Below, in pieces: positions 1,923 through 63,296 of a stretch of DNA of 64,000 nt. A program made the position numbers and the translations under genes. The notes under the pieces were generated by a model, which was given only the letters and a program-made list of their open reading frames with translations, was not told where the DNA came from and made no database searches. Each line of letters begins with the position of its first letter. Within the stretch, counting starts at the first letter, position 1. Source of the DNA: Verrucomicrobiia bacterium. Its GTDB lineage: Bacteria; Verrucomicrobiota; Verrucomicrobiia; Limisphaerales; UBA11358. The DNA lies in contig DASZAB010000034.1 of assembly GCA_035945675.1 (NCBI GenBank), positions 30,255 to 94,254 on the forward strand. The letters run 5' to 3'.

Positions 1923-3200
1923 ATGGCCCGTCCCAGCCAGCTTACCATGTGCAGTTTCTGCGGCAAATCGCACGCGGAAGTGCGCAAGCTCATCGCCGGG
2001 CCGGGCGTTTATATCTGCGACAATTGCATCATCCTCTGTAAAAACGTCCTCGACCGCGAATTGGAACTCCAGAACCAGAAAAAACAGCCGAAATTCACCG
2101 TTCCCAAGCCTGCGGAAATCAAACGGCAGCTGGATATGCACTGTGTCGGCCAGGAGCACGCCAAGAAAACGTTGGCGGTCGCGGTTCACAATCATTACAA
2201 GCGCATTCAGCAGGAACCCGAGGGGGGGCTTGCCGCCGGCAAGGGCAAGCATGCCGGCGTGGAAATCGAAAAGAGCAATATTTTGATGATCGGCCCGACC
2301 GGTTCCGGCAAAACACTGCTGGCACGCACGCTGGCCAAAGTCCTCGATGTCCCTTTCGCCATGGCCGACGCCACCACGCTCACCGAAGCCGGCTACGTGG
2401 GTGAAGACGTGGAGAACATCATATTGCGGTTGCTGCAAAATTCGGATTACGACGTGAAACGCGCCCAGCGCGGCATCGTTTACATTGACGAGATTGATAA
2501 AATTGCGCGCAAGGCCGACGGCCCGTCCATCACCCGCGACGTTTCCGGCGAAGGCGTGCAGCAGGCGCTGCTGAAAATCCTCGAAGGCACGGTCTGCAAC
2601 GTGCCGCCCCAGGGCGGACGCAAACATCCGCAGCAGGAATATATCCGCGTGGACACGACGGACATCCTGTTCATTTGCGGCGGGGCGTTTGTCGGCCTGG
2701 AGAAAATCATTCAACGGCGGCTGGGTCGGCACACGATGGGTTTTGGCGCCATCGGCGAGGTGCAAAAGAACGGCCAGGCCGCCCGTGTTCAAATTTTACA
2801 GCGCGCCGAACCGGAGGATTTGCTGGATTACGGTTTCATTCCCGAATTCATCGGCCGGCTGCCGGTGGTGACCACGCTGGCGGAATTGTCCGAAGATCAA
2901 CTGGTTTCCATTCTCACCGAGACCAAAAACGCGTTGACGAAGCAATTCGCCAAGCTCATGGCGATGGAAGGCGTGGAATTGGAGTTCACACCCGATGCGC
3001 TGCGCGAACTGGCAATTTTGGCGCTCAAGAAGGGCACCGGCGCGCGCGCACTGCGCGGGTTGATTGAGCGGCTGATGCTGGACGTGATGTATGACGCGCC
3101 CGACAACAGCGACGTCGTTCACGTGAAAATCACGCGGTCCGCTGTGCTCGGTGAAACCCAACCCCTCGTGCGGCGCAAACCGGATATGGAGGCGGCGTAG
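1923..3200 (+). CDS. clpX: ATP-dependent Clp protease ATP-binding subunit ClpX
   Basis: N-terminal zinc finger CSFCGK..CDNC, Walker A GPTGSGKT, Walker [10 protein letters not shown]. Lies directly downstream of clpP. Confidence 0.97.
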
Positions 3201-8524: not shown

Positions 8525-8603
8525 TTCGGTGGGCGGGTGTCCTCGCGAGCCGGCTCGTCAGGAGCCACGCCCCCCCAAAAATGTACTGTTACCGCCGACG
8601 CGG
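8525..8603 (+). repeat. Family A palindromic element, copy A1 (intergenic)
   Basis: GGTGGGCGGGTGTCCTCGCGAGCCGGCTCGTCAGGAGCCACGCCCCC plus shared flank AAAATGTAC..TACC. Homologous to the copies at 22144, 55646, 58070 and 61988. Confidence 0.8.
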
Positions 8604-21182: not shown

Positions 21183-21247
21183 CAGGAGCCGAGGTGACGA
21201 GGCTCTGATCTTCATAATTATTAGAGCCTCCTCACGTCGGCTCCTAC
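21183..21247. repeat. Family B-like double-arm hairpin element (copy B4), 8 nt after the hldD stop
   Basis: AGGAGCCGAGGTGACGAGGCTC ... GAGCCTCCTCACGTCGGCTCCT. The arms are near-complementary. Confidence 0.7.
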
Positions 21248-21312
21248 CGGATCCGATGAACTTCACAATAACGTGACTTGCCTTGACAGCGATCCACGTC
21301 AATCCTTGTTGC

Positions 21313-24036
21313 GTGAAAGGCAAATCGTTCATCCACCTTGGAATTATTGTGCTGGCCGCGCTCGGCTTTCATTGTTTTGGCGGTGATTTCGACCAGACCA
21401 CCGAAATCGTCGGTCGTAACCCCAGCGGCTTTGAAACGCCGGTCAATCAACTCGTCACGCCCGCCGGAACGCCCGTCGAACTTCCCGGCCTGCGGCCGAA
21501 TGCACTCGCACTGAGTCCGGACGGCGAACGGCTCGTGACCGCCGGCCTGACGCAACGACTGATCGTCATCAATCCGGCAACCGGAACAATCCTGCAGCGC
21601 GTGCGGTTGCCCGCCGACGACAAAATTCCGCAGGCCGGATCCGTTTCCAGCGGCATTCTCCAACCGAACGAGAAGGCCAAGCTCAGTTTCACCGGCCTCG
21701 TCTTTTCGCCTGATGGCTCACGGATATACCTGGCCAACGTCAACGGCGACATCAAGGTTTTCAGCGTTGACGCGGACCATAAAGTCACGCCGTTGTTCTC
21801 CCTTCCGCTGCCGCCGGCCAACGCGCCGTTGCGCCAGGCCGAAATTCCGGCCGGGATCGCCGTTTCTTCAGACGGCAGGGAGCTTTACGTTGCCGGCAAC
21901 CTTTCTAATCACCTCCTTGAACTCGACGCCGTGACCGGGAAAGTTCTGCGGACTTGGGACACAGGTGTTGCGCCTTTCGATGTCGTCCTCTGCAAAAATA
22001 AAATTTATGTGAGCAACTGGGGTGGGCGGCGGCCGGGCCCGGACAGCCTGACCGGTCCGGCCGGCAACGGCATGAGGGTGCGTGTGGACGCGCGTTCCAT
22101 TGCCAGCGAAGGCTCGGTCTCGGTGATTGATTTGACAGAAGCTGGTGGGGCGAGCGTCCTCGCGAGCCATGGCAACGAGGGCTCGTCGGTAGCCTCGCCC
22201 CGCCCAATCCAGGAACTCCGGACCGGTTTGCATGCCTGCGCCCTGGCGTTAGCGCCCAATGGCCGTTGGCTGGTCGTCGCCAACGCGGGCAGCGACACGC
22301 TGAGCGTGATTGACACGCGGACGGACAAAATCTTCGAGACGATCTGTGCGCGGCAGAACCCGGCGGATTTATTTGGCGCGCAACCCAACGCGCTGGCCTT
22401 CGATAAAAAAGGCAAAACCCTGTTCGTTTGCAACGGCACCCAAAATGCCGTCGCCGTTTTCCGCTTCCAACCCGGCAAATCCAAATTGCTGGGCCTGATA
22501 CCCGTCGGCTGGTTCCCCGGTTCCATTGCGTATGATGCGAAGCGGAAGGAAATTTACGTGGCGAACATTAAAAACCTCAGTCCGGGGATTCGAAGTCACA
22601 CCGGCGAAACGGAGTTCAATTCCAAGGAATATTATGGTTCTCTGTCGCTCGTGCCAGTGCCGTCGAAAAGGGAATTGGCCAGGTTCACCCGGATTGCGCT
22701 GGCGGATTTGCGTTATCCGCTGCTCGCGCAGGCTGCGTTGCCGGCGCGACCCGATCAACCGTCGCGGCCGGTGCCGGAGCGGGCTGGCGAGCCGAGCGTT
22801 TTTCATCACGTCATCTACATCATCAAGGAAAACCGCACTTATGATCAGGTTCTGGGCGATGTCAAGGAAGGCAACGGCGACGCGAATTTGTGCACGTTCG
22901 GCGAGGCCGTCACTCCCAACCAACACAAGCTCGTACGCGATTTCGTGCTGCTGGACAACACGTACTGTTGCAGCATCCTCAGCGCGGACGGCCATCAATG
23001 GGCGGACACAGGCATCGCGATGGATTACGTGGAGCGCGGGTTTGCCGGCTGGCCGCGCAGCTATCCGGCGGGCGGTTTTGGCGAGGAAGGCCGGGACGCG
23101 CTGGCCTATTCACCGGCGGGTTTCATCTGGAACGACGCGCTCGCGCACGGCAAAACGGTTTGTGATTTCGGGGAATTCACCACCGCTCACAAACAATGGA
23201 AGGATTCCCGCCGCAAAGGTGAACCGGATTTTCTCGATTGTTACCACGATTTCCTGGCCGACTCGAATGCGATTGCCTATGCCTGCGAGCCGGACATCGA
23301 GGCGCTGCAACCTTATCTCATGACGAACACGATTGGCTGGGATTTGGACGTGCCGGACATCTGGCGCGCCGCGCAATTCGGCAAAGACCTGAAACAATTT
23401 GAAGCGGCAGACAATCTGCCAAATCTGGTCATCCTCTGGTTGCCGAACGACCACACCAGCGGCACCGCGTTCGGTTCGCCCACGCCCGCGGCGCAGGTGG
23501 CGGACAACGACCTGGCGGTCGGGCAGGTGGTCGAGGCTGTCAGCCACAGCAAGTATTGGAAGGACACGTGCATTTTTGCGGTGGAAGACGATCCGCAGAA
23601 CGGCTGGGACCACGTGAGCGGCTACCGCACCACCGCCTACGTCGCCAGCGCCTATACCCGTCGCGGCGCCGTGGTCAGCACCCAATACAATCAGACCAGT
23701 TTGCTGCGCACGATGGAACTCATGCTCGGGTTGCCGCCGATGAACCAGATGGATGCGACGGCCACGCCGATGTTCGATTGTTTCACCAACACGGCGGACT
23801 TCACACCGTTTACCGCCGTGGCCAACCAGACGCCGCTCGACCAAATGAATCCACCGCCGAAGAAAATTTCCGACGCGCGGCTGCGCAAGGACGCCTACGT
23901 ATCCGCGCGCTTGCCGCTCAAGAAGGAAGATCAATGCCCGGAAGACGTGTTCAATCGCATCTTATGGGATGCGACCAAAGGTCCGCAGACGCCGTATCCG
24001 GTCTGGGCGGTCAAAGCGCTGGATGACGATGATTGA
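21313..24036 (+). CDS. Secreted YncE-like beta-propeller fused to a phosphoesterase (phospholipase C / AcpA family) domain
   Basis: GTG 21313 gives the signal peptide KGKSFIHLGIIVLAALGF. Propeller repeats (LSPDG, FSPDGSRIYLAN, SSDGRELYVAG). Phosphoesterase motifs VIYIIKENRTYDQVLGD, LPNDHTSG, VEDDPQNGWDHV. Confidence 0.85.
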   Translation: MKGKSFIHLGIIVLAALGFHCFGGDFDQTTEIVGRNPSGFETPVNQLVTPAGTPVELPGLRPNALALSPDGERLVTAGLTQRLIVINPATGTILQRVRLPADDKIPQAGSVSSGILQPNEKAKLSFTGLVFSPDGSRIYLANVNGDIKVFSVDADHKVTPLFSLPLPPANAPLRQAEIPAGIAVSSDGRELYVAGNLSNHLLELDAVTGKVLRTWDTGVAPFDVVLCKNKIYVSNWGGRRPGPDSLTGPAGNGMRVRVDARSIASEGSVSVIDLTEAGGASVLASHGNEGSSVASPRPIQELRTGLHACALALAPNGRWLVVANAGSDTLSVIDTRTDKIFETICARQNPADLFGAQPNALAFDKKGKTLFVCNGTQNAVAVFRFQPGKSKLLGLIPVGWFPGSIAYDAKRKEIYVANIKNLSPGIRSHTGETEFNSKEYYGSLSLVPVPSKRELARFTRIALADLRYPLLAQAALPARPDQPSRPVPERAGEPSVFHHVIYIIKENRTYDQVLGDVKEGNGDANLCTFGEAVTPNQHKLVRDFVLLDNTYCCSILSADGHQWADTGIAMDYVERGFAGWPRSYPAGGFGEEGRDALAYSPAGFIWNDALAHGKTVCDFGEFTTAHKQWKDSRRKGEPDFLDCYHDFLADSNAIAYACEPDIEALQPYLMTNTIGWDLDVPDIWRAAQFGKDLKQFEAADNLPNLVILWLPNDHTSGTAFGSPTPAAQVADNDLAVGQVVEAVSHSKYWKDTCIFAVEDDPQNGWDHVSGYRTTAYVASAYTRRGAVVSTQYNQTSLLRTMELMLGLPPMNQMDATATPMFDCFTNTADFTPFTAVANQTPLDQMNPPPKKISDARLRKDAYVSARLPLKKEDQCPEDVFNRILWDATKGPQTPYPVWAVKALDDDD
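22144..22205 (+). repeat. Family A palindromic element, copy A2, in frame inside the phosphoesterase CDS
   Basis: GGTGGGGCGAGCGTCCTCGCGAGCC..GGCTCGTCGGTAGCCTCGCCCCGCCC, translated as GGASVLASHGNEGSSVASPRP. Confidence 0.85.
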
Positions 24037-47764: not shown

Positions 47765-47769
47765 TTTCC

Positions 47770-47841
47770 GTAGCAGCCGACATGAGTCGGCTCAAACTTT
47801 GGGGATGGGGGAGTAAGGAGCGGACTCACGTCCGCTGCTAC
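47770..47841. repeat. Family B composite double-hairpin element, copy B1 (6 nt after the asd stop)
   Basis: GTAGCAGCCGACATGAGTCGGCTC..GAGCGGACTCACGTCCGCTGCTAC. Each arm is a hairpin, and the outer GTAGCAGC/GCTGCTAC closes the element. Confidence 0.85.
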
Positions 47842-50075: not shown

Positions 50076-50279
50076 CTGACGCCTCCCTCACATCCCATCC
50101 GGGTGCGAAACAGCCGCGACGGGCGGTGGAGTTCTGAGATGTTCCATAGATTGCCAGTTGAAGTCTTTGCATTTGACCATCTTTTAAAAATATTGTCAAG
50201 AGAACATGTTACTTATGATAAGCATAATGCGACGTGTTCACGCAGTGCCAATCGCGGAAGAATTGATTAAATAACCCTC

Positions 50280-50350
50280 GTAGCAGCCGATGTGAATCGG
50301 CTCAATCTTTGGGGAAGGGGCATAATGAGCGGACTCACGTCCGCTGCTAC
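50280..50350. repeat. Family B composite double-hairpin element, copy B2
   Basis: GTAGCAGCCGATGTGAATCGGCTC..GAGCGGACTCACGTCCGCTGCTAC. Compensatory C:G to T:A change in arm 1 relative to B1. Confidence 0.85.
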
Positions 50351-53768: not shown

Positions 53769-53845
53769 CGGGGCGTAGCGTAGCCTGGTAGCGCGCTTGT
53801 TTCGGGTACAAGAGGTCGTGAGTTCGAATCTCACCGCCCCGACCA
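53769..53845 (+). tRNA. tRNA-Pro (anticodon CGG), CCA encoded
   Basis: Acceptor CGGGGCG/CGCCCCG. D arm GCGT-AGCCTGGTA-GCGC. Anticodon stem CTTGT/ACAAG with loop TTCGGGT. T arm GTGAG-TTCGAAT-CTCAC. Discriminator A followed by CCA. Confidence 0.93.
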
Positions 53846-54100: not shown

Positions 54101-55756
54101 TTATTTTTCCAGGTTGTATCTGACGAAATCCAGGTCGGCGGTCCCCCCATTGGGCCCGTAGCAAAACAATGCCAGCCGCGCACCCTTCCATTTGCCGAAC
54201 TTCAATTCCACCGCCAGTCCGGTGTCGGTGTAGTGTTCGCCATCGGTACTGTAGAACAGTCGCGCCTCCTTCCCATGGTACTTGCCCCGGAACCATACGT
54301 CAGCGCCCTTTAACACCGGGCCCGCGCCATTTTCCAAGGCGATTCGCCGCACTCCGTCGCTCTGCGTTACCCCAACCCAGTCAAACCTGTCGCCGCTCAT
54401 AAAGGCAAATCCGGTGCATTGGTTTTCCGCCATGGCGCTGACATCGAACTTTGTGTCAATGAGGCCGTCCTGTCCCAACAATTTTTCGGTCAGGGTGTTG
54501 TGGGCGGTGGACAGGCCGGAGGCGGGCAAGGCGTTGAGTCGCAGCCAGCCGGGCCGGGCCGTCAGTGACCAGGAGTCATTCATTGGGTTGTGGTTCCATT
54601 GCCAGATCGGAGACAGCACCGGATCGTCGAAATCGTCGCTTCTTTGTGGATGATGAATGGGAGAAGGCCGTCCGACATAAGGTTTTTTCCATCGGTCCAC
54701 CGACTGGCCGTGATCGCCGAACACCGGCCAGTCATCTGTGCCCCAGGTGACCGGCATCAGGTAGGTGATACGTCCAAGGAAACCGCTGGATTTGAAGCAC
54801 AGAAACCACCATTGACCATCAGCCAGTTCCACGAGCGCGCCTTGATGCGGACTGCCATCAGGCAACACCACCCGCCGTTCGTACGGGCCATAAATATTGG
54901 TGGAACGGAGCATCGTCTGGCCGCCCGTGCCGACGCCGCCTTCCGGAAGGGATATGTAATACCAGCCGTTCCGTTTGAAGAGTTTTGGGCCTTCCGCCGT
55001 CGGGCCGTGATAAATTTCAACACCGTCATCCAGCAATCGCACCCCGTCCGGGCTCATGCGGTGCAGAATCAATGGGCCGGCACCCTTGAGACTATGAATG
55101 AGGTACGCCTGCCCGTCGTCATCCCAGAACGGGCAGGGATCTTCCCAGCGTTCCACGGCCCGAACGGTGAACGTTCGCGACCACGGCCCGGCTGGATTTT
55201 GGGCGTGCCACATGAATAAACCTTCGGACGGAGTACAGACGAAGACGTAATAGGTACCGTTGTGATAACGCAAGGTCGGCGCCCACGTCCCCTCACCATA
55301 GCCGGTCAGGTCATCGTACTTTGGCGACATGCTCAACCGGTGGAATACCTGGCCGATGACTTCCCAATTGACGAGATCGCGCGAATGCAACACCTGCATG
55401 CCGACGAAGTGAAAATCCGACGCGACCAGATAAAAATCGTTCCGGACGCGAATGACGTCAGGATCGGAATAATCCGCGGGCAGGACCGGATTTCGATAGG
55501 TGCCGTCGCCCTGGTCACCCCAGCTCAGTGGCGATTCGGCGGGAATGGCCGGCGGGGCCGGTTGACTGGCGGCGGTAAAGCTCATCATCATGATGCCGGT
55601 AAAAAGCGAAATGGCGCCTTTTCGGGTGAAAGTATATTCCGCAACTTTCGGTGGGGCGAGCGTCCTCGCAAGCCGGCTCGTCAGTAGCCTCGCCCCATCA
55701 AAATGTACCACTACCCGTTTCCATAGGGCGCGGATGGTTTGGGACCGGTTTACCAT
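54101..55756 (-). CDS. Glycoside hydrolase family 43 protein with C-terminal beta-sandwich domain
   Basis: YRNPVLPADYSDPDVIRVRNDFYLVAS, WAPTLRYHNGTYY, EGPKLFKRNGWYY (GH43 blades). The start is uncertain (55756 or the MMM at 55591) because a family A repeat lies in the 5' part. Confidence 0.85.
   Translation of the reverse strand: MVNRSQTIRALWKRVVVHFDGARLLTSRLARTLAPPKVAEYTFTRKGAISLFTGIMMMSFTAASQPAPPAIPAESPLSWGDQGDGTYRNPVLPADYSDPDVIRVRNDFYLVASDFHFVGMQVLHSRDLVNWEVIGQVFHRLSMSPKYDDLTGYGEGTWAPTLRYHNGTYYVFVCTPSEGLFMWHAQNPAGPWSRTFTVRAVERWEDPCPFWDDDGQAYLIHSLKGAGPLILHRMSPDGVRLLDDGVEIYHGPTAEGPKLFKRNGWYYISLPEGGVGTGGQTMLRSTNIYGPYERRVVLPDGSPHQGALVELADGQWWFLCFKSSGFLGRITYLMPVTWGTDDWPVFGDHGQSVDRWKKPYVGRPSPIHHPQRSDDFDDPVLSPIWQWNHNPMNDSWSLTARPGWLRLNALPASGLSTAHNTLTEKLLGQDGLIDTKFDVSAMAENQCTGFAFMSGDRFDWVGVTQSDGVRRIALENGAGPVLKGADVWFRGKYHGKEARLFYSTDGEHYTDTGLAVELKFGKWKGARLALFCYGPNGGTADLDFVRYNLEK
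55646..55722 (+). repeat. Family A palindromic element, copy A3 (inside the 5' part of the GH43 ORF, inverted relative to the gene)
   Basis: TTTCGGTGGGGCGAGCGTCCTCGCAAGCCGGCTCGTCAGTAGCCTCGCCCCATCAAAATGTACCACTACC. Near-identical to A1, including the flanks. Confidence 0.85.
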
Positions 55757-58069: not shown

Positions 58070-58137
58070 GGTGGGGCGAGCGTCCCCGCGAGCCGGACGT
58101 GGCGCGCCGAAGCTTTGCGAAGGCGGCTCCTCAGTAG
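58070..58137 (+). repeat. Family A element, copy A4 (intergenic, variant centre)
   Basis: GGTGGGGCGAGCGTCCCCGCGAGCCGG..GGCTCCTCAGTAG. Confidence 0.75.
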
Positions 58138-58184
58138 TTTCCTGTTCCTTTTTGAACTGCCCACGGACCATGGACCGCATGGTT

Positions 58185-60625: not shown

Positions 60626-60645
60626 CGACGTCACGGGATGAAATT

Positions 60646-60703
60646 GTAGCAGCGAACGTAAGTTCGCTCCAATTGAAATGAGCCGACTCACGTCGGCTGC
60701 TAC
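60646..60703. repeat. Family B element, copy B3 (short spacer)
   Basis: GTAGCAGCGAACGTAAGTTCGCTC..GAGCCGACTCACGTCGGCTGCTAC. Lies between the divergent DUF456 and lipoprotein genes. Confidence 0.8.
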
Positions 60704-60763
60704 GAAATACTGCAATGACCTTGATTCGGTTTGGATTTGGTTCTACAAGGAGGTCGCGCCTTT

Positions 60764-61157: not shown

Positions 61158-63296
61158 TTACTTCCTCGTCCGCTTCAATTTTTTATAACTCACCGGCTTC
61201 GCTTCCGGTTTTTCGCCGTTGACCATGCGTTTCAATTCCTTGATCTGGTCGCGGAGCAGGGCGGCTTTTTCAAATTCCAGCTTTTCCGCCGCTGCCAGCA
61301 TTTCGGTTTCGAGTTCGCTGATGGTTTCCGTCAGGTCCACGTCCATTGCGGCATCTTTCAGGACGGACGCGCCGGCTTCGCGTTTCGATTCGTAAACGGC
61401 CAGGCTTTCTTCAACCGCGCGGCTGACGCTGCGGGGTGTGATGTTGTGTTCCGCGTTGTAAGCGATTTGTTTTTGGCGGCGATATTCGGTCACGGCCAGA
61501 AATCTGTTGATGCTGTTCGTCATCACGTCGGCATAGAGAATCACCTCACCGTGCAAATGCCGCGCGGCGCGGCCCGCGGTCTGGATCAAACTCGTTTCAC
61601 TGCGCAGAAAACCTTCCTTGTCCGCGTCGAGGATCGCCACCAATGAAACTTCCGGCAAATCCAGACCTTCCCGCAACAGGTTGATGCCGACGAGCACATC
61701 GAATTCGCCTTTGCGGAGCGAACGCAAAATCTCCACGCGCTCAATGGCGTCAATCTCACTGTGGAGATACTGGACGTTGACGCCGATGCCGCGCAGGTAA
61801 TCGGTCAGTTCCTCGGCAGTGCGTTTGGTGAGTGTCGTTACAAGGATGCGCTCCTTCGCCTCGGCACGTTTGCGGCATTCCTCGATCAGATCGTCGATCT
61901 GGCCTTTGAGCGGTTTGAGCGTGACCTTGGGGTCGATCAGACCGGTGGGGCGCACCACGAGTTCGACGACGCCCGGCATTTGTTGGTGGGGCGAGGCTAC
62001 TGACGAGCCGGCTGTTTCGATTCGGCTCGCGGGGACGCTCGCCCCACCGTTCGATTCGGCTCGCGGGGACGCTCGCCCCGCGGTGGCACTTTCCCGCGAC
62101 CATTCCAGTTCGCGTTTGGCCGGAGTGGCGCTGACGTAAATCGTCTGGCCTTGCATTCCTTGAAATTCCTCGAATTTCAGCGGGCGATTATCCAGCGCAC
62201 TCGGCAGGCGGAAACCGTACTCAACCAAAACGGTCTTCCGCGAGCGGTCCCCTTCGAACATCGCGCCGATTTGCGGGACGGTCGCGTGAGATTCATCAAT
62301 CACCAGCAGGTAATCGTTCGGAAAAAAGTCAATGACGGTTGCCGGGCGCGAGCCGGGCGGGCGTCCGGCGATGTGGCGCGAATAATTTTCGATGCCGGAA
62401 CAGACGCCCATCTCCTCCATCATCTCCAGGTCGAATTCCGTGCGCTGCTTGATGCGCTGGGCTTCGAGCAGTTTGCCATTCTTTTCAAACCAGACGATGC
62501 GCTCGCGCAATTCCTCGCGGATGGCGAGAGCGGCGCGCTTCATCTTGTCGGCGGTGGTGACAAACTGCTTTCCCGGGAAAATGGTCACGGCGTCGAGCGT
62601 TTCGGTTTTGTTTCCCGTCAACGGATCGAAACGGGTGAGCCGCTCGATTTGCTCGCCGAAAAATTCGACGCGCAGGCCGTCTTCGCGCCCCGCTGGCCGG
62701 ACTTCCACGGTGTCACCGCGCACGCGGAAATGGCCGCGTTCGAACGCGATGTCATTCCGGTCGTACTGCAAATCCACCAGGCGCGCGAGGAGTTGCTCGC
62801 GCGAGATTTCCAGGCCGACGCGGATGGGAATGACCATCGCTTCGTAATCTTCCTTGCTGCCGATGCCGTAAATGCACGACACGCTGGCAACGACGACGAC
62901 ATCCCGGCGCGAGAACAGCGAACTCATGGTTGAGAGCCGCAGTCGCTCGATTTCTTCGTTCCGGCTGGAATCCTTCTCGATGAATGTGTCCGTGCGCGGG
63001 ATGTAGGCTTCCGGCTGGTAATAATCGAAGTAACTGACGAAGTATTCGACGGCGTTGCGGGGAAAAAATCCCTTGAACTCGGCGTAAAGCTGCGCGGCCA
63101 GTGTTTTGTTGTGGGAAATGACCAGCGTGGGTTTGTCCACGTTTTTGATGACGTTGGCGATGGCGAAGGTTTTCCCGGAGCCGGTGACGCCGAGGAGCGT
63201 CTGGTGTTTTGCGCCCGACAAAATGCCATCGGTCAGCTTCGCAATCGCTTGCGGCTGGTCACCGGCGGGCTGGAAGGGCGCGACGAGTTCGAACAT
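61158..63296 (-). CDS. uvrB: Excinuclease ABC subunit B
   Basis: GVTGSGKTF, DESH, YVSATP, VRPTGL, LREGLDLPEV, GRAARH, C-terminal UVR domain EKAALLRDQIKELK. ATG 63296. Confidence 0.97.
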   Translation of the reverse strand: MFELVAPFQPAGDQPQAIAKLTDGILSGAKHQTLLGVTGSGKTFAIANVIKNVDKPTLVISHNKTLAAQLYAEFKGFFPRNAVEYFVSYFDYYQPEAYIPRTDTFIEKDSSRNEEIERLRLSTMSSLFSRRDVVVVASVSCIYGIGSKEDYEAMVIPIRVGLEISREQLLARLVDLQYDRNDIAFERGHFRVRGDTVEVRPAGREDGLRVEFFGEQIERLTRFDPLTGNKTETLDAVTIFPGKQFVTTADKMKRAALAIREELRERIVWFEKNGKLLEAQRIKQRTEFDLEMMEEMGVCSGIENYSRHIAGRPPGSRPATVIDFFPNDYLLVIDESHATVPQIGAMFEGDRSRKTVLVEYGFRLPSALDNRPLKFEEFQGMQGQTIYVSATPAKRELEWSRESATAGRASPRAESNGGASVPASRIETAGSSVASPHQQMPGVVELVVRPTGLIDPKVTLKPLKGQIDDLIEECRKRAEAKERILVTTLTKRTAEELTDYLRGIGVNVQYLHSEIDAIERVEILRSLRKGEFDVLVGINLLREGLDLPEVSLVAILDADKEGFLRSETSLIQTAGRAARHLHGEVILYADVMTNSINRFLAVTEYRRQKQIAYNAEHNITPRSVSRAVEESLAVYESKREAGASVLKDAAMDVDLTETISELETEMLAAAEKLEFEKAALLRDQIKELKRMVNGEKPEAKPVSYKKLKRTRK
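61988..62083 (-). repeat. Family A element, copy A5, with a 34-nt tandem re-duplication of one arm, in frame inside uvrB
   Basis: GGGGCGAGGCTACTGACGAGCCGGC..TCGATTCGGCTCGCGGGGACGCTCGCCCC occurs twice. Translated as ATAGRASPRAESNGGASVPASRIETAGSSVASPH. Confidence 0.85.

Follow-up and report, generated by a model that had tools for sequence, protein, structure and literature searches.

A probable RAYT-associated REP/REPIN family of Verrucomicrobiota, found in frame within uvrB and a phosphoesterase gene at sites shared with other repeat families

Here we report that a palindromic repeat, family A, found in a 64,000-nucleotide stretch of Verrucomicrobiia contig DASZAB010000034.1 (the window), is most probably (about 80% by our estimate) a non-autonomous REP/REPIN-type element of Verrucomicrobiota, associated with a RAYT transposase and bound to no special reading frame. 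The initial annotation had likened it to the Rickettsia palindromic elements (RPEs); its in-frame insertion behaviour bears the likeness out, but the family is best placed with the RAYT-associated REP/REPINs and not among RPE-like orphans. What looked like an RPE-like oddity can then be described as a REPIN family and its transposase, a defined system widespread in Verrucomicrobiota. Elements of this kind are already known from another verrucomicrobium, and what was unexpected here is the re-use of the same gene sites by many different repeat families.

The family A unit is 25 nt long and reads GGTGG-GGCGAG-N8-CGAGCC, its variants L, R1, R2 and R3 being set by the top 8 nt. All variants share the stem GGCGAG-N8-CGAGCC, which, as read from the sequences, pairs GGC with GCC and adds a tandem G.A pair and a G-C pair; the head is G-GTGG-G, with GTGG and not GTAG. 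The L half (GGGGCGAGCGTCCYCGCGAGCC) occurs six times in the window at up to three mismatches, against about 0.01 expected by chance, and the R half (GGCTCGTCRGTAGCCTCGCCCC) four times against none expected; relaxing the search to as many as 6 mismatches over 25 nt added no copies in the window. The predicted fold of a single L shows the GGC/GCC stem, and the energy of a single L or R is close to that of shuffled sequences (z = -0.2 to -0.8), unlike the canonical GTAG repeat of the window (z = -3.55). Doublets with their heads outward (L ... R or L ... L') form a single long hairpin, with RNA folds of whole elements at z = -4.3 (22144 copy), -4.1 (55650) and -3.75 (uvrB) against shuffles, and the consensus whole element, folded as DNA, at z = -3.8. 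The terminal inverted repeats are 11 nt long (GGTGGGGCGAG / CTCGCCCCACC). The 25-mer has a G+C content of 76%, L carries no stop codon in any of the six frames, and the element as a whole is GC-rich and almost stop-free.

Table 1. Family A elements, their flank and their host genes in the window
Feature	Position	Strand	Details
Degenerate compact element upstream of ileS	8527..8576	+	L-like half 8527-8551 (5 mismatches), R2-like half 8552-8576 (3 mismatches)
Host gene 1, YncE-like beta-propeller fused to phosphoesterase domain	21283..24036	+	Pfam Lactonase, YNCE, Phosphoesterase; maximal ORF, annotated orthologues being ~11 codons shorter at the N-terminus
Complete family A element in host gene 1	22144..22204	+	L 22144-22168, centre 22169-22179 (11 nt), R 22180-22204
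Compact family A element, no centre	55650..55699	+	L 55650-55674, R 55675-55699; between divergent GH43 (-) and trmB-like (+) genes
3' flank AAAATGTACCACTACCC	55700..55716	+	Common to the 8527 copy and copies in L042 and L049
L half, 30-nt centre and decayed R half	58070..58142	+	L 58070-58094, centre of GGACGTGGCGCGCCGAAGCTTTGCGAAGGC type, R 58125-58142; non-coding
Host gene 2, uvrB	61158..63296	-	Database protein P0001, 712 aa, 100% identical, start MFELV
Whole uvrB insertion	61983..62099	-	117 nt (39 codons), between codons AGT GCC and GGC GTC; defined against solved UvrB structures and empty-site orthologues
Family A element in uvrB	61985..62082	-	L copy with degenerate head 62058-62082, 9 nt, L 62024-62048, centre 62010-62023 (14 nt), R 61985-62009

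All five loci first reported are present (Table 1). The 8527 copy is degenerate, and the 58070 copy has a degenerate R half and no significant fold (z = +0.9). The 22144 element spans about 20 codons in frame and reads GGASVLAS-HGNE-GSSVASPR, its host gene having orthologues at 72-93% identity. In uvrB the peptide is GGASVPAS..GSSVASPH, also as first claimed, and the two centres (11 and 14 nt) do differ by a multiple of three. The two uvrB L copies derive from a 34-nt tandem duplication (62016-62049 / 62050-62083), the second (62058-82) being read in another frame, as GRASPRA.

The remaining copies appear to be non-coding. The initial annotation placed the 55650 copy in the 5' part of the GH43 ORF, but the gene most likely begins downstream of it, which would probably leave the element in the 5' untranslated region: the likely start is ATG ATG ATG at about 55591, no start codon falls between there and the element, and the 5' stretch of the ORF that carries it shows no coding signal. 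Around the 8527 copy, coding scores are negative in all six frames. These two copies share the flanks TTTCGG.. and ..AAAATGTAC..TACC, which recur in loci L042 and L049 of other genomes; the 3' flank follows the 8527 copy directly (8577-8593), and L049 holds an orthologue of the 55650 copy with an extra 30-nt centre. The centre type of the 58070 copy (GGACGTGGCGCGCCGAAGCTTTGCGAAGGC) recurs in L027 and L042.

Family A is a repeat of soil and freshwater Verrucomicrobia, of Limisphaerales and their relatives. Among the matches listed, more than 117 stretches of genome carry the L half; almost all of them belong to Verrucomicrobiota MAGs, with several copies per MAG. An inverted partner (L', R1, R2 or R3) lies within 110 nt of 79 of the 141 listed L copies, the other 62 being solo, and element lengths cluster at 50, 69-70 and 80-81 nt. 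A scan of viral contigs gave 13 hits.

The association with a transposase comes from loci in which L units surround a small open reading frame: ORF 2752-3258 of L004, with L at 2668-2692 (+), 3315 (+) and 3436 (-), and ORF 925-1539 of L080, with L at 896 (+) and 1460 (-). Both match the REP-associated tyrosine transposase profile NCBIfam NF047646 (E = 6.5e-20 and 1.1e-18), with scores of 71.5 and 67.6 bits that fall just below the equivalog cut-off of 80. The L004 ORF also matches the E. coli TnpA-REP structure 4er8_A (E = 2.7e-8) with the HUH and Y..NPV motifs aligned; Pfam returned no match for either ORF. A third intact RAYT lies in L057 and fragments lie in L054 and L021, all of them L-anchored loci, and the L057 and L054 matches adjoin an L unit. 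With L057, the related Verrucomicrobiota loci where a RAYT gene is flanked by single L units number three. The ORFs encode 168-204 aa, cover the 146-position profile nearly end to end and have no C-terminal extension, and the units seen around them are only L, never R. No RAYT gene was found in the window, so that for the source genome this link rests on relatives. We know of no family in which RAYT-driven REPIN movement has been shown experimentally.

Comparison with solved structures and orthologues indicates that the uvrB and phosphoesterase segments are insertions and not ancestral peptide, as the initial annotation had held. UvrB aligns to solved UvrB structures over residues 10-408 and 448-698 with nothing opposite 409-447, and the break at 408/448 corresponds to residue 403 of 2fdc_A, a position placed by sequence alignment to that structure only; an AlphaFold2 model of the insert-bearing protein was unusable (mean pLDDT 40, from a shallow alignment of near-identical orthologues). 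Orthologues with an empty site exist for both genes, namely P0038 and P0111 for uvrB (with L118 and L119 for the DNA comparison), and P0164 and others for the phosphoesterase, whose empty site in L129 reads 'IDL NSTNQS EIVTG'. The preserved reading frames suggest that the inserts are translated. Two candidate features of the uvrB site were rejected: a TGCC repeat at the junction, considered as a target duplication, is absent from other families, and CGCCCCACC in the codons for RPTG, considered as a target, is unconserved in other insert-bearing orthologues.

The same sites hold many other repeats. An insert is present at the uvrB site in 116 of 118 scorable orthologues and comes from at least ten peptide/REP families (inserts were sorted by motif classes after single-linkage clustering, which merged unrelated low-complexity families, was dropped), and the phosphoesterase and mutS sites likewise carry different, unrelated REP families in close orthologues. 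Nested or hybrid states were found in L125, P0003, P0017 and P0109/P0113, and six MutS proteins contain a family B doublet beside a leftover right arm of family A. A Fitch count on the uvrB tree gave 60 changes of insert type, an upper-leaning estimate, since each family retains a single junction and recombination or a poorly resolved tree could inflate the count. The uvrB, phosphoesterase and mutS sites behave as re-used landing pads. We tentatively propose, while holding it less likely than not, that intragenic REP sites in these bacteria are persistent landing pads where REPINs of unrelated families insert by preference at the resident hairpin, within it or alongside it, after which the older copy decays, occupancy remaining near 100% and family turnover outpacing divergence of the host protein. 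If true, these sites would supply evidence from nature that REPIN integration is targeted to hairpins, and would describe a ratchet by which an essential repair protein is made to keep a parasite-derived linker.

The presence of some hairpin-forming insert at the uvrB linker in nearly every orthologue could also mean that copies are kept as DNA or RNA signals (3'-end stabilisers, terminators, binding sites or interdomain pause sites) and that mobility is secondary. Orthologous family A copies are indeed more conserved than the third positions of their hosts (84% against 58.5% in the phosphoesterase, 87% against 63% in uvrB), the 58070 copy begins 34 nt past the stop codon of an SMP-30/gluconolactonase gene, and REPs as a class are found mainly downstream of genes (PMC3733652). 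The excess conservation, however, may equally come from gene conversion, re-insertion or recognition by the RAYT; orthologues with empty sites exist; a census of flanking gene orientation left 62 of 112 calls unclear; and an Rfam scan of the window returned one tRNA and no family matching the element. We regard such a signal role as unlikely to be the primary explanation, though it has more in its favour than the other alternatives and is compatible with a REP/REPIN family rather than exclusive of it.

The reading frame bears on whether family A is instead an orphan, RPE-like family adapted to coding and selected for one orientation and frame, so as to add the module GGASVxAS...GSSVASPH. Both complete intragenic copies of the window share orientation and frame, and among copies in other genomes sense frame 0 is the commonest class (9 of 26, followed by sense 1 and antisense 1 with 5 each, antisense 0 with 4 and antisense 2 with 3). 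These 26 are the intragenic, in-frame fraction of 120 testable L copies, about 22%, the other ~78% being non-coding; all ten hosts examined with Pfam proved to be real genes in which the copy is embedded (HsdR, MutS, PheT, LeuRS, Acs, a chorismate-binding enzyme, GlmS, a UvrD-like helicase, HflX and MiaB). Copies thus occur in either orientation and in five of six frames, the sample points towards even use of the stop-free frames, and stop-free frames are expected of a 25-mer with 76% G+C. The extra uvrB L copy lies in another frame than its neighbour, the family A copy of MutS takes the L...L' form and reads GRASPRA...AREDARPT, and the family has an associated RAYT. The initial annotation, which had proposed a dedicated frame, itself named an absence of frame bias genome-wide as evidence against its reading, and essentially no bias was found in this sample. 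A special reading frame across the family is not supported, and an orphan family adapted to coding is accordingly very improbable.

Its 11-nt terminal inverted repeats, size of 50-80 nt and variable centres would also suit a classical MITE derived by deletion from a DDE insertion sequence, whose transposase would act on those repeats. Across 79 complete copies, however, there is no target-site duplication, the flanks being complementary (YY...RR, extending the palindrome) with no direct repeat; the only transposase seen to be enclosed by the repeats is of the Y1/HUH RAYT type; and solo half-units are common (62/141), so that we give this origin very little credence. That the inserts are ancestral low-complexity linkers, as an extra segment in nearly all close UvrB orthologues might suggest, or artefacts of metagenome-bin assembly, is refuted by the segment's absence from solved UvrB structures and two close orthologues, by the dispersal of identical DNA copies over hundreds of unrelated loci, and by recovery of the same inserts in independent assemblies from NCBI, ENA, JGI and Logan.

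Family A resembles the REP/REPIN-RAYT systems of E. coli, Pseudomonas, Stenotrophomonas and others in its short units, rich in GC and conserved at the 5' head, its frequent inverted doublets forming one hairpin, its dispersed and mostly extragenic copies, its repeat-flanked small HUH/Y1 transposase gene and its lack of target duplication. It differs in its head (GTGG against GTAG), in the weak unit hairpin closed via a tandem G.A pair, and in the frequency of hetero-dimeric (L + R) doublets. As far as is known, classical REP families seldom extend beyond one genus, whereas the 25-nt unit of family A is conserved in many MAGs whose labels place them in different Verrucomicrobiota lineages.

The closest precedent lies in the same phylum. 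Opitutus terrae carries intragenic GTAG-type REPs, singles and dimers, that are in frame and encode about 7-30 residues, mostly in DNA-repair genes, with hosts enriched for DNA repair and RNA handling (uvrA, ligase, helicases, tRNA synthetases) (Di Nocera, De Gregorio and Rocco 2013, PMC3733652). The suggestion that nothing of the sort had been described for this lineage is thus only narrowly true. In-frame singles and dimers are common to both, and that paper gives GTGG as the main head variant of one O. terrae family; the sequence families differ, GASV and ASPH being absent from the study's peptide table, and the study did not report that many families had taken one another's place at a single site (PMC3733652).

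RPEs are likewise palindromic, occur both intergenically and in frame in conserved genes (uvrB of R. conorii included), lack counterparts in orthologues and are presumed to occupy protein regions that tolerate them, but are restricted to Rickettsia. RPE-4 and RPE-6 have been placed among the CGTC-tagged REPs, for which no transposase of their own was found (PMC3733652), whereas family A has a GTGG head and a RAYT. The TIR repeats that flank TIRYT transposases, with the motif GGGGWSAS (Di Nocera 2013; subclass 2.1 in Quentin et al. 2018, PMC6006769), are also inverted repeats around a Y1 transposase gene and likewise make up dispersed families of moderate abundance, and the family A motif GGGGCGAG agrees with GGGGWSAS at 7 of 8 positions; the family A transposase, however, is short (168-204 aa) and ends without the long HTH-bearing C-terminal extension that is usual in TIRYTs.

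Based on these observations, we suggest that a cognate RAYT, a single-strand HUH/Y1 enzyme whose own gene is flanked by L units, would spread family A in trans by a movement that leaves no target duplication. The element being stop-poor and GC-rich, chance frame-keeping insertions in tolerant surface loops or linkers could survive selection and be translated as 20-40 extra residues, and the uvrB and phosphoesterase copies may be viewed as such survivors. Later REP families would be gained by nesting into the resident hairpin, with the older copy then lost, so that the site persists and its occupant changes. Such tolerated positions would be the domain 1a/3 junction of uvrB, a loop in a propeller blade and domain III of MutS.

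For in-frame survival, stop-poor GC-rich sequence and tolerant loops would then suffice. Re-use of sites by many families at codon level offers a natural data set on how REPINs choose their targets. The inserts also call for care in annotation, as they add to protein lengths and give rise in MAGs to split domains and spurious "hypothetical" ORFs. An example of the predicted peptide across the insert junctions is ...ETAGSSVASPHQQMPGVVELVVR.

We consider family A most probably (about 0.8) a REP/REPIN family associated with a RAYT (REP-associated tyrosine transposase), whose in-frame copies would be survivors of selection within tolerant loops. All five loci named in the initial annotation are present (see the table), and on reading the sequence each is a two-part element with a left half L (GGTGGGGCGAGCGTCCYCGCGAGCC) and a right half R (GGCTCGTCRGTAGCCTCGCCCCACC), of which the outer 11 nt do pair, as proposed. 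Allowing 3 mismatches at most, the window contains six matches to the 22-nt core of L, where 0.01 would be expected, and four to the core of R (0 expected); a looser mismatch search of the window found no copies beyond the five loci. Complete elements have much more stable folds than shuffled sequence, with z = -4.3, -4.1 and -3.75; at 58070 the R half is decayed and the fold is not better than shuffles. No Rfam family matches the element, the sole Rfam match in the window being a tRNA gene.

Repeat elements and RNA gene located in the window
Feature	Position	Description
Window-edge palindrome	1-65	CGCCGGTCTCCGATCCGGCG...CGCCGGATCGGAGACCGGCGCTCC
Family A	8527	
Family B	21224-21247	single unit, GTAGCAGCCGACrTGAGTCGGCTC
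Family A	22144	in beta-propeller/phosphoesterase gene (plus strand)
Family B	47766-47841	head-out doublet
Family B	50278-50350	head-out doublet
tRNA gene	53769-53842	Rfam match
Family A	55650	adjoins GH43 ORF
Family A	58070	decayed R half
30-nt centre	58095-58124	GGMC..GCGCGCCGAAGC..GCGAAGGC
Family B	60644-60707	head-out doublet
Family A	61985-62082	in uvrB (minus strand)

DNA surrounding the 8527 and 58070 copies scores negative for coding in all six frames. The 55650 copy, previously placed in the 5' part of the GH43 ORF, is probably non-coding, since no start codon separates it from ATG ATG ATG (~55591) and there is no coding signal 5' of the copy. This intergenic copy recurs with the same flanks in a related 2.2-Mb contig (L049 ~840-930, orthologous to window 55641-55720), where its centre is 30 nt long; the window has none, and the centre is gained or lost inside a single locus. 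The 30-nt centre of the table is found again in unrelated loci of other genomes (L027, L042), and thus at least some “variable centres” are conserved modules themselves.

A genome scan with one genome per species placed the L core in more than 117 stretches, and nearly all of the matches listed belong to Verrucomicrobiota MAGs (Limisphaerales, “subdivision 3”, Verrucomicrobiia). Among these matches are 141 L copies, of which 79 are paired with an inverted partner no more than 110 nt away and the other 62 stand alone; total lengths group around 50, 69-70 and 80-81 nt. The partner is L itself, giving a perfect palindrome, or an R variant (..GTCAGTAGCC.., ..GTCAGGAGCC.. or ..GCCGGGAGTC..). All halves read as GGTGG-GGCGAG-N8-CGAGCC: a head, a lower GGC/GCC stem with a tandem G.A pair, and a variable 8-nt top; the predicted fold of L displays the GGC/GCC stem. 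The two bases beyond the ends are YY on one side and RR on the other, so the palindrome continues outward, and flank comparison of the listed matches found no target duplication. Thirteen IMG/VR viral-collection contigs (L130-L142) also carry the L core; these copies could be prophage-adjacent host DNA or genuine phage copies.

In two other genomes (stretches L004 and L080), ORFs of 168 and 204 aa lie between inverted L units and match the NCBIfam “REP-associated tyrosine transposase” (E = 6.5e-20 and 1.1e-18) with 71.5 and 67.6 bits, just below the equivalog cut-off of 80. The L004 ORF aligns with the solved E. coli TnpA-REP (4er8_A; E = 2.7e-8), “PDHLHA” falling on the HUH motif and “YVQENPVRKGLV” on the tyrosine motif. 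By tblastn, a third intact RAYT adjoins L units in L057 and fragments occur in L054 and L021; the same search found no RAYT gene in the window. This is the arrangement of a REPtron, that is, REPs with RAYTs (PMC3733652, PMC6006769). By the nomenclature of Di Nocera et al., family A elements count as HH (head-to-head) dimers built from a REP with a GTGG head, and GTGG prevails as the head in one Opitutus terrae REP family (PMC3733652). RAYT genes also contain their own L repeat in frame (L080:1254-1278, L057:6847-6868), encoding “LAGTPAPPG” in L080; the L004 RAYT is without that peptide.

The two genic copies are, by comparison with orthologues, evidently insertions, as first claimed. The window belongs to a Verrucomicrobiae MAG, and its UvrB is 100% identical to a database protein bearing that label. 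Window UvrB residues 10-408 align with 4-403 of Bacillus caldotenax UvrB (2fdc_A) and 448-698 with 403-655; residues 409-447 (nt 61983-62099), which hold the whole element, have nothing opposite. Presumably the insert falls where helicase domains 1a and 3 join. Built on a shallow alignment of near-identical orthologues, an AlphaFold model of UvrB with the insert gave pLDDT 40. The site is empty in two close orthologues (P0038, “WSRQSA|GVVEL”; P0111). At 22144, in a gene identified by Pfam, the window reads “SVSVIDL-TEAGGASVLASHGNEGSSVASPRPIQ-ELRTGLHA” and many orthologues “SVSVIDL-NSTNQS-EIVTGLHA”.

Copies were called coding from a stop-free-span test combined with a log-likelihood model of codon use, for which long ORFs from the window and the loci served as training set. 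Among the matches listed, 26 of 120 testable L copies (22%) are in frame within coding sequence, with 9, 5 and 0 in sense frames 0, 1 and 2 and 4, 5 and 3 in the antisense frames. Pfam confirmed ten of ten hosts as genuine conserved genes, the copy lying inside or between domains (HsdR, MutS, PheT, LeuRS, acetyl-CoA synthetase, chorismate-binding enzyme, GlmS, UvrD-like helicase, HflX, MiaB). Stop codons are absent from L in six frames and R1, an R-half variant, has one in one frame per strand, which is unremarkable at 76% G+C. The initial annotation's single shared frame does not hold: because copies elsewhere use five of six frames on both strands, and the uvrB L copies themselves differ (the duplicated L reads GRASPRA, the following one GGASVPAS), the common frame of the two window copies is a small-number coincidence, not a family property.

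Orthologous copies are conserved above their hosts' silent sites in the two genes compared: 83/95 (87%) against 63% at silent (third) positions in uvrB (window and L120), and 49/58 (84%) against 58.5% at third codon positions in the phosphoesterase (window and L128). This excess indicates that the DNA or RNA is constrained, or else that other copies homogenise the sequence.

The landing-pad behaviour of these sites, re-used by different families, is the part deserving follow-up. Of the 120 UvrB proteins most similar to that of the window (82-100% identity), 118 were scorable at this position and 116 of these carry an insert, in at least ten unrelated peptide classes; each of the six classes compared as DNA is a different inverted repeat. 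Occupants include GTAG-type family B (..SRLTSAAT), the window-edge palindrome (GAP..GSETGAPP), a GEGRGEG/SPQPSPP family and a second GGTGGGGCG-headed family. Family B takes the site in L121, and the edge palindrome in L122 and ~27 other orthologues. With inserts masked, two proteins that differ by less than 3% have matching insert types in 72% of cases; at a distance of 3-6% the figure is 15%, equal to background. On an NJ tree, 60 changes are required under parsimony (minimum 12; shuffled labels 79.8 +/- 3.2). Each family keeps a single junction at this site, so one origin with later recombination among lineages is possible, and 60 is probably too high; at least ~10 separate arrivals at one ~10-nt site still need explanation. 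The phosphoesterase site is either empty or occupied by family A or one of five or more further families; here the tree needs 28 changes (minimum 8; shuffled labels 39.9 +/- 1.7). At a third site, in MutS of L046, 89 of 117 proteins carry family A, and the remainder have at least five other families. Six MutS hybrids place a family B doublet beside a leftover family A right arm. In uvrB, a GTAG-headed hairpin sequence lies within the family A centre (L125), another family's left half precedes family A (P0003, P0017), and one family sits inside another (P0109, P0113).

Di Nocera, De Gregorio and Rocco (2013, PMC3733652) divided REPs into two superfamilies, tagged GTAG and CGTC. Intragenic REPs occur in several species, the GTAG type being most numerous in O. 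terrae (Verrucomicrobia), and concentrate in replication/repair genes (uvrA, ligase, helicases); R. conorii uvrB also holds one, and R. conorii RPE-4 and RPE-6 are classed as CGTC REPs (PMC3733652). Family A peptides are absent from that study's table of intragenic REPs. The element is therefore of a known kind and the family new, so the earlier remark that nothing had been described for this lineage stands for the family only. Its analogy with Rickettsia palindromic elements (RPEs) likewise survives for behaviour, that is, in-frame insertion, and fails for membership, family A being RAYT-associated.

Family B resembles a canonical GTAG REP, its monomer folding with z = -3.55. Two of its doublets each begin 2-8 nt past the stop codon of an ORF whose final ~35 nt are repeated as well. 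Short peptide repeats of the SELRTPNSE / SEIRNPKSEI type occur at the phosphoesterase and UvrB sites (P0128, P0133, P0004 and similar proteins), alone or nested inside family B doublets, and apparently form one more family of short repeats, this one non-palindromic.
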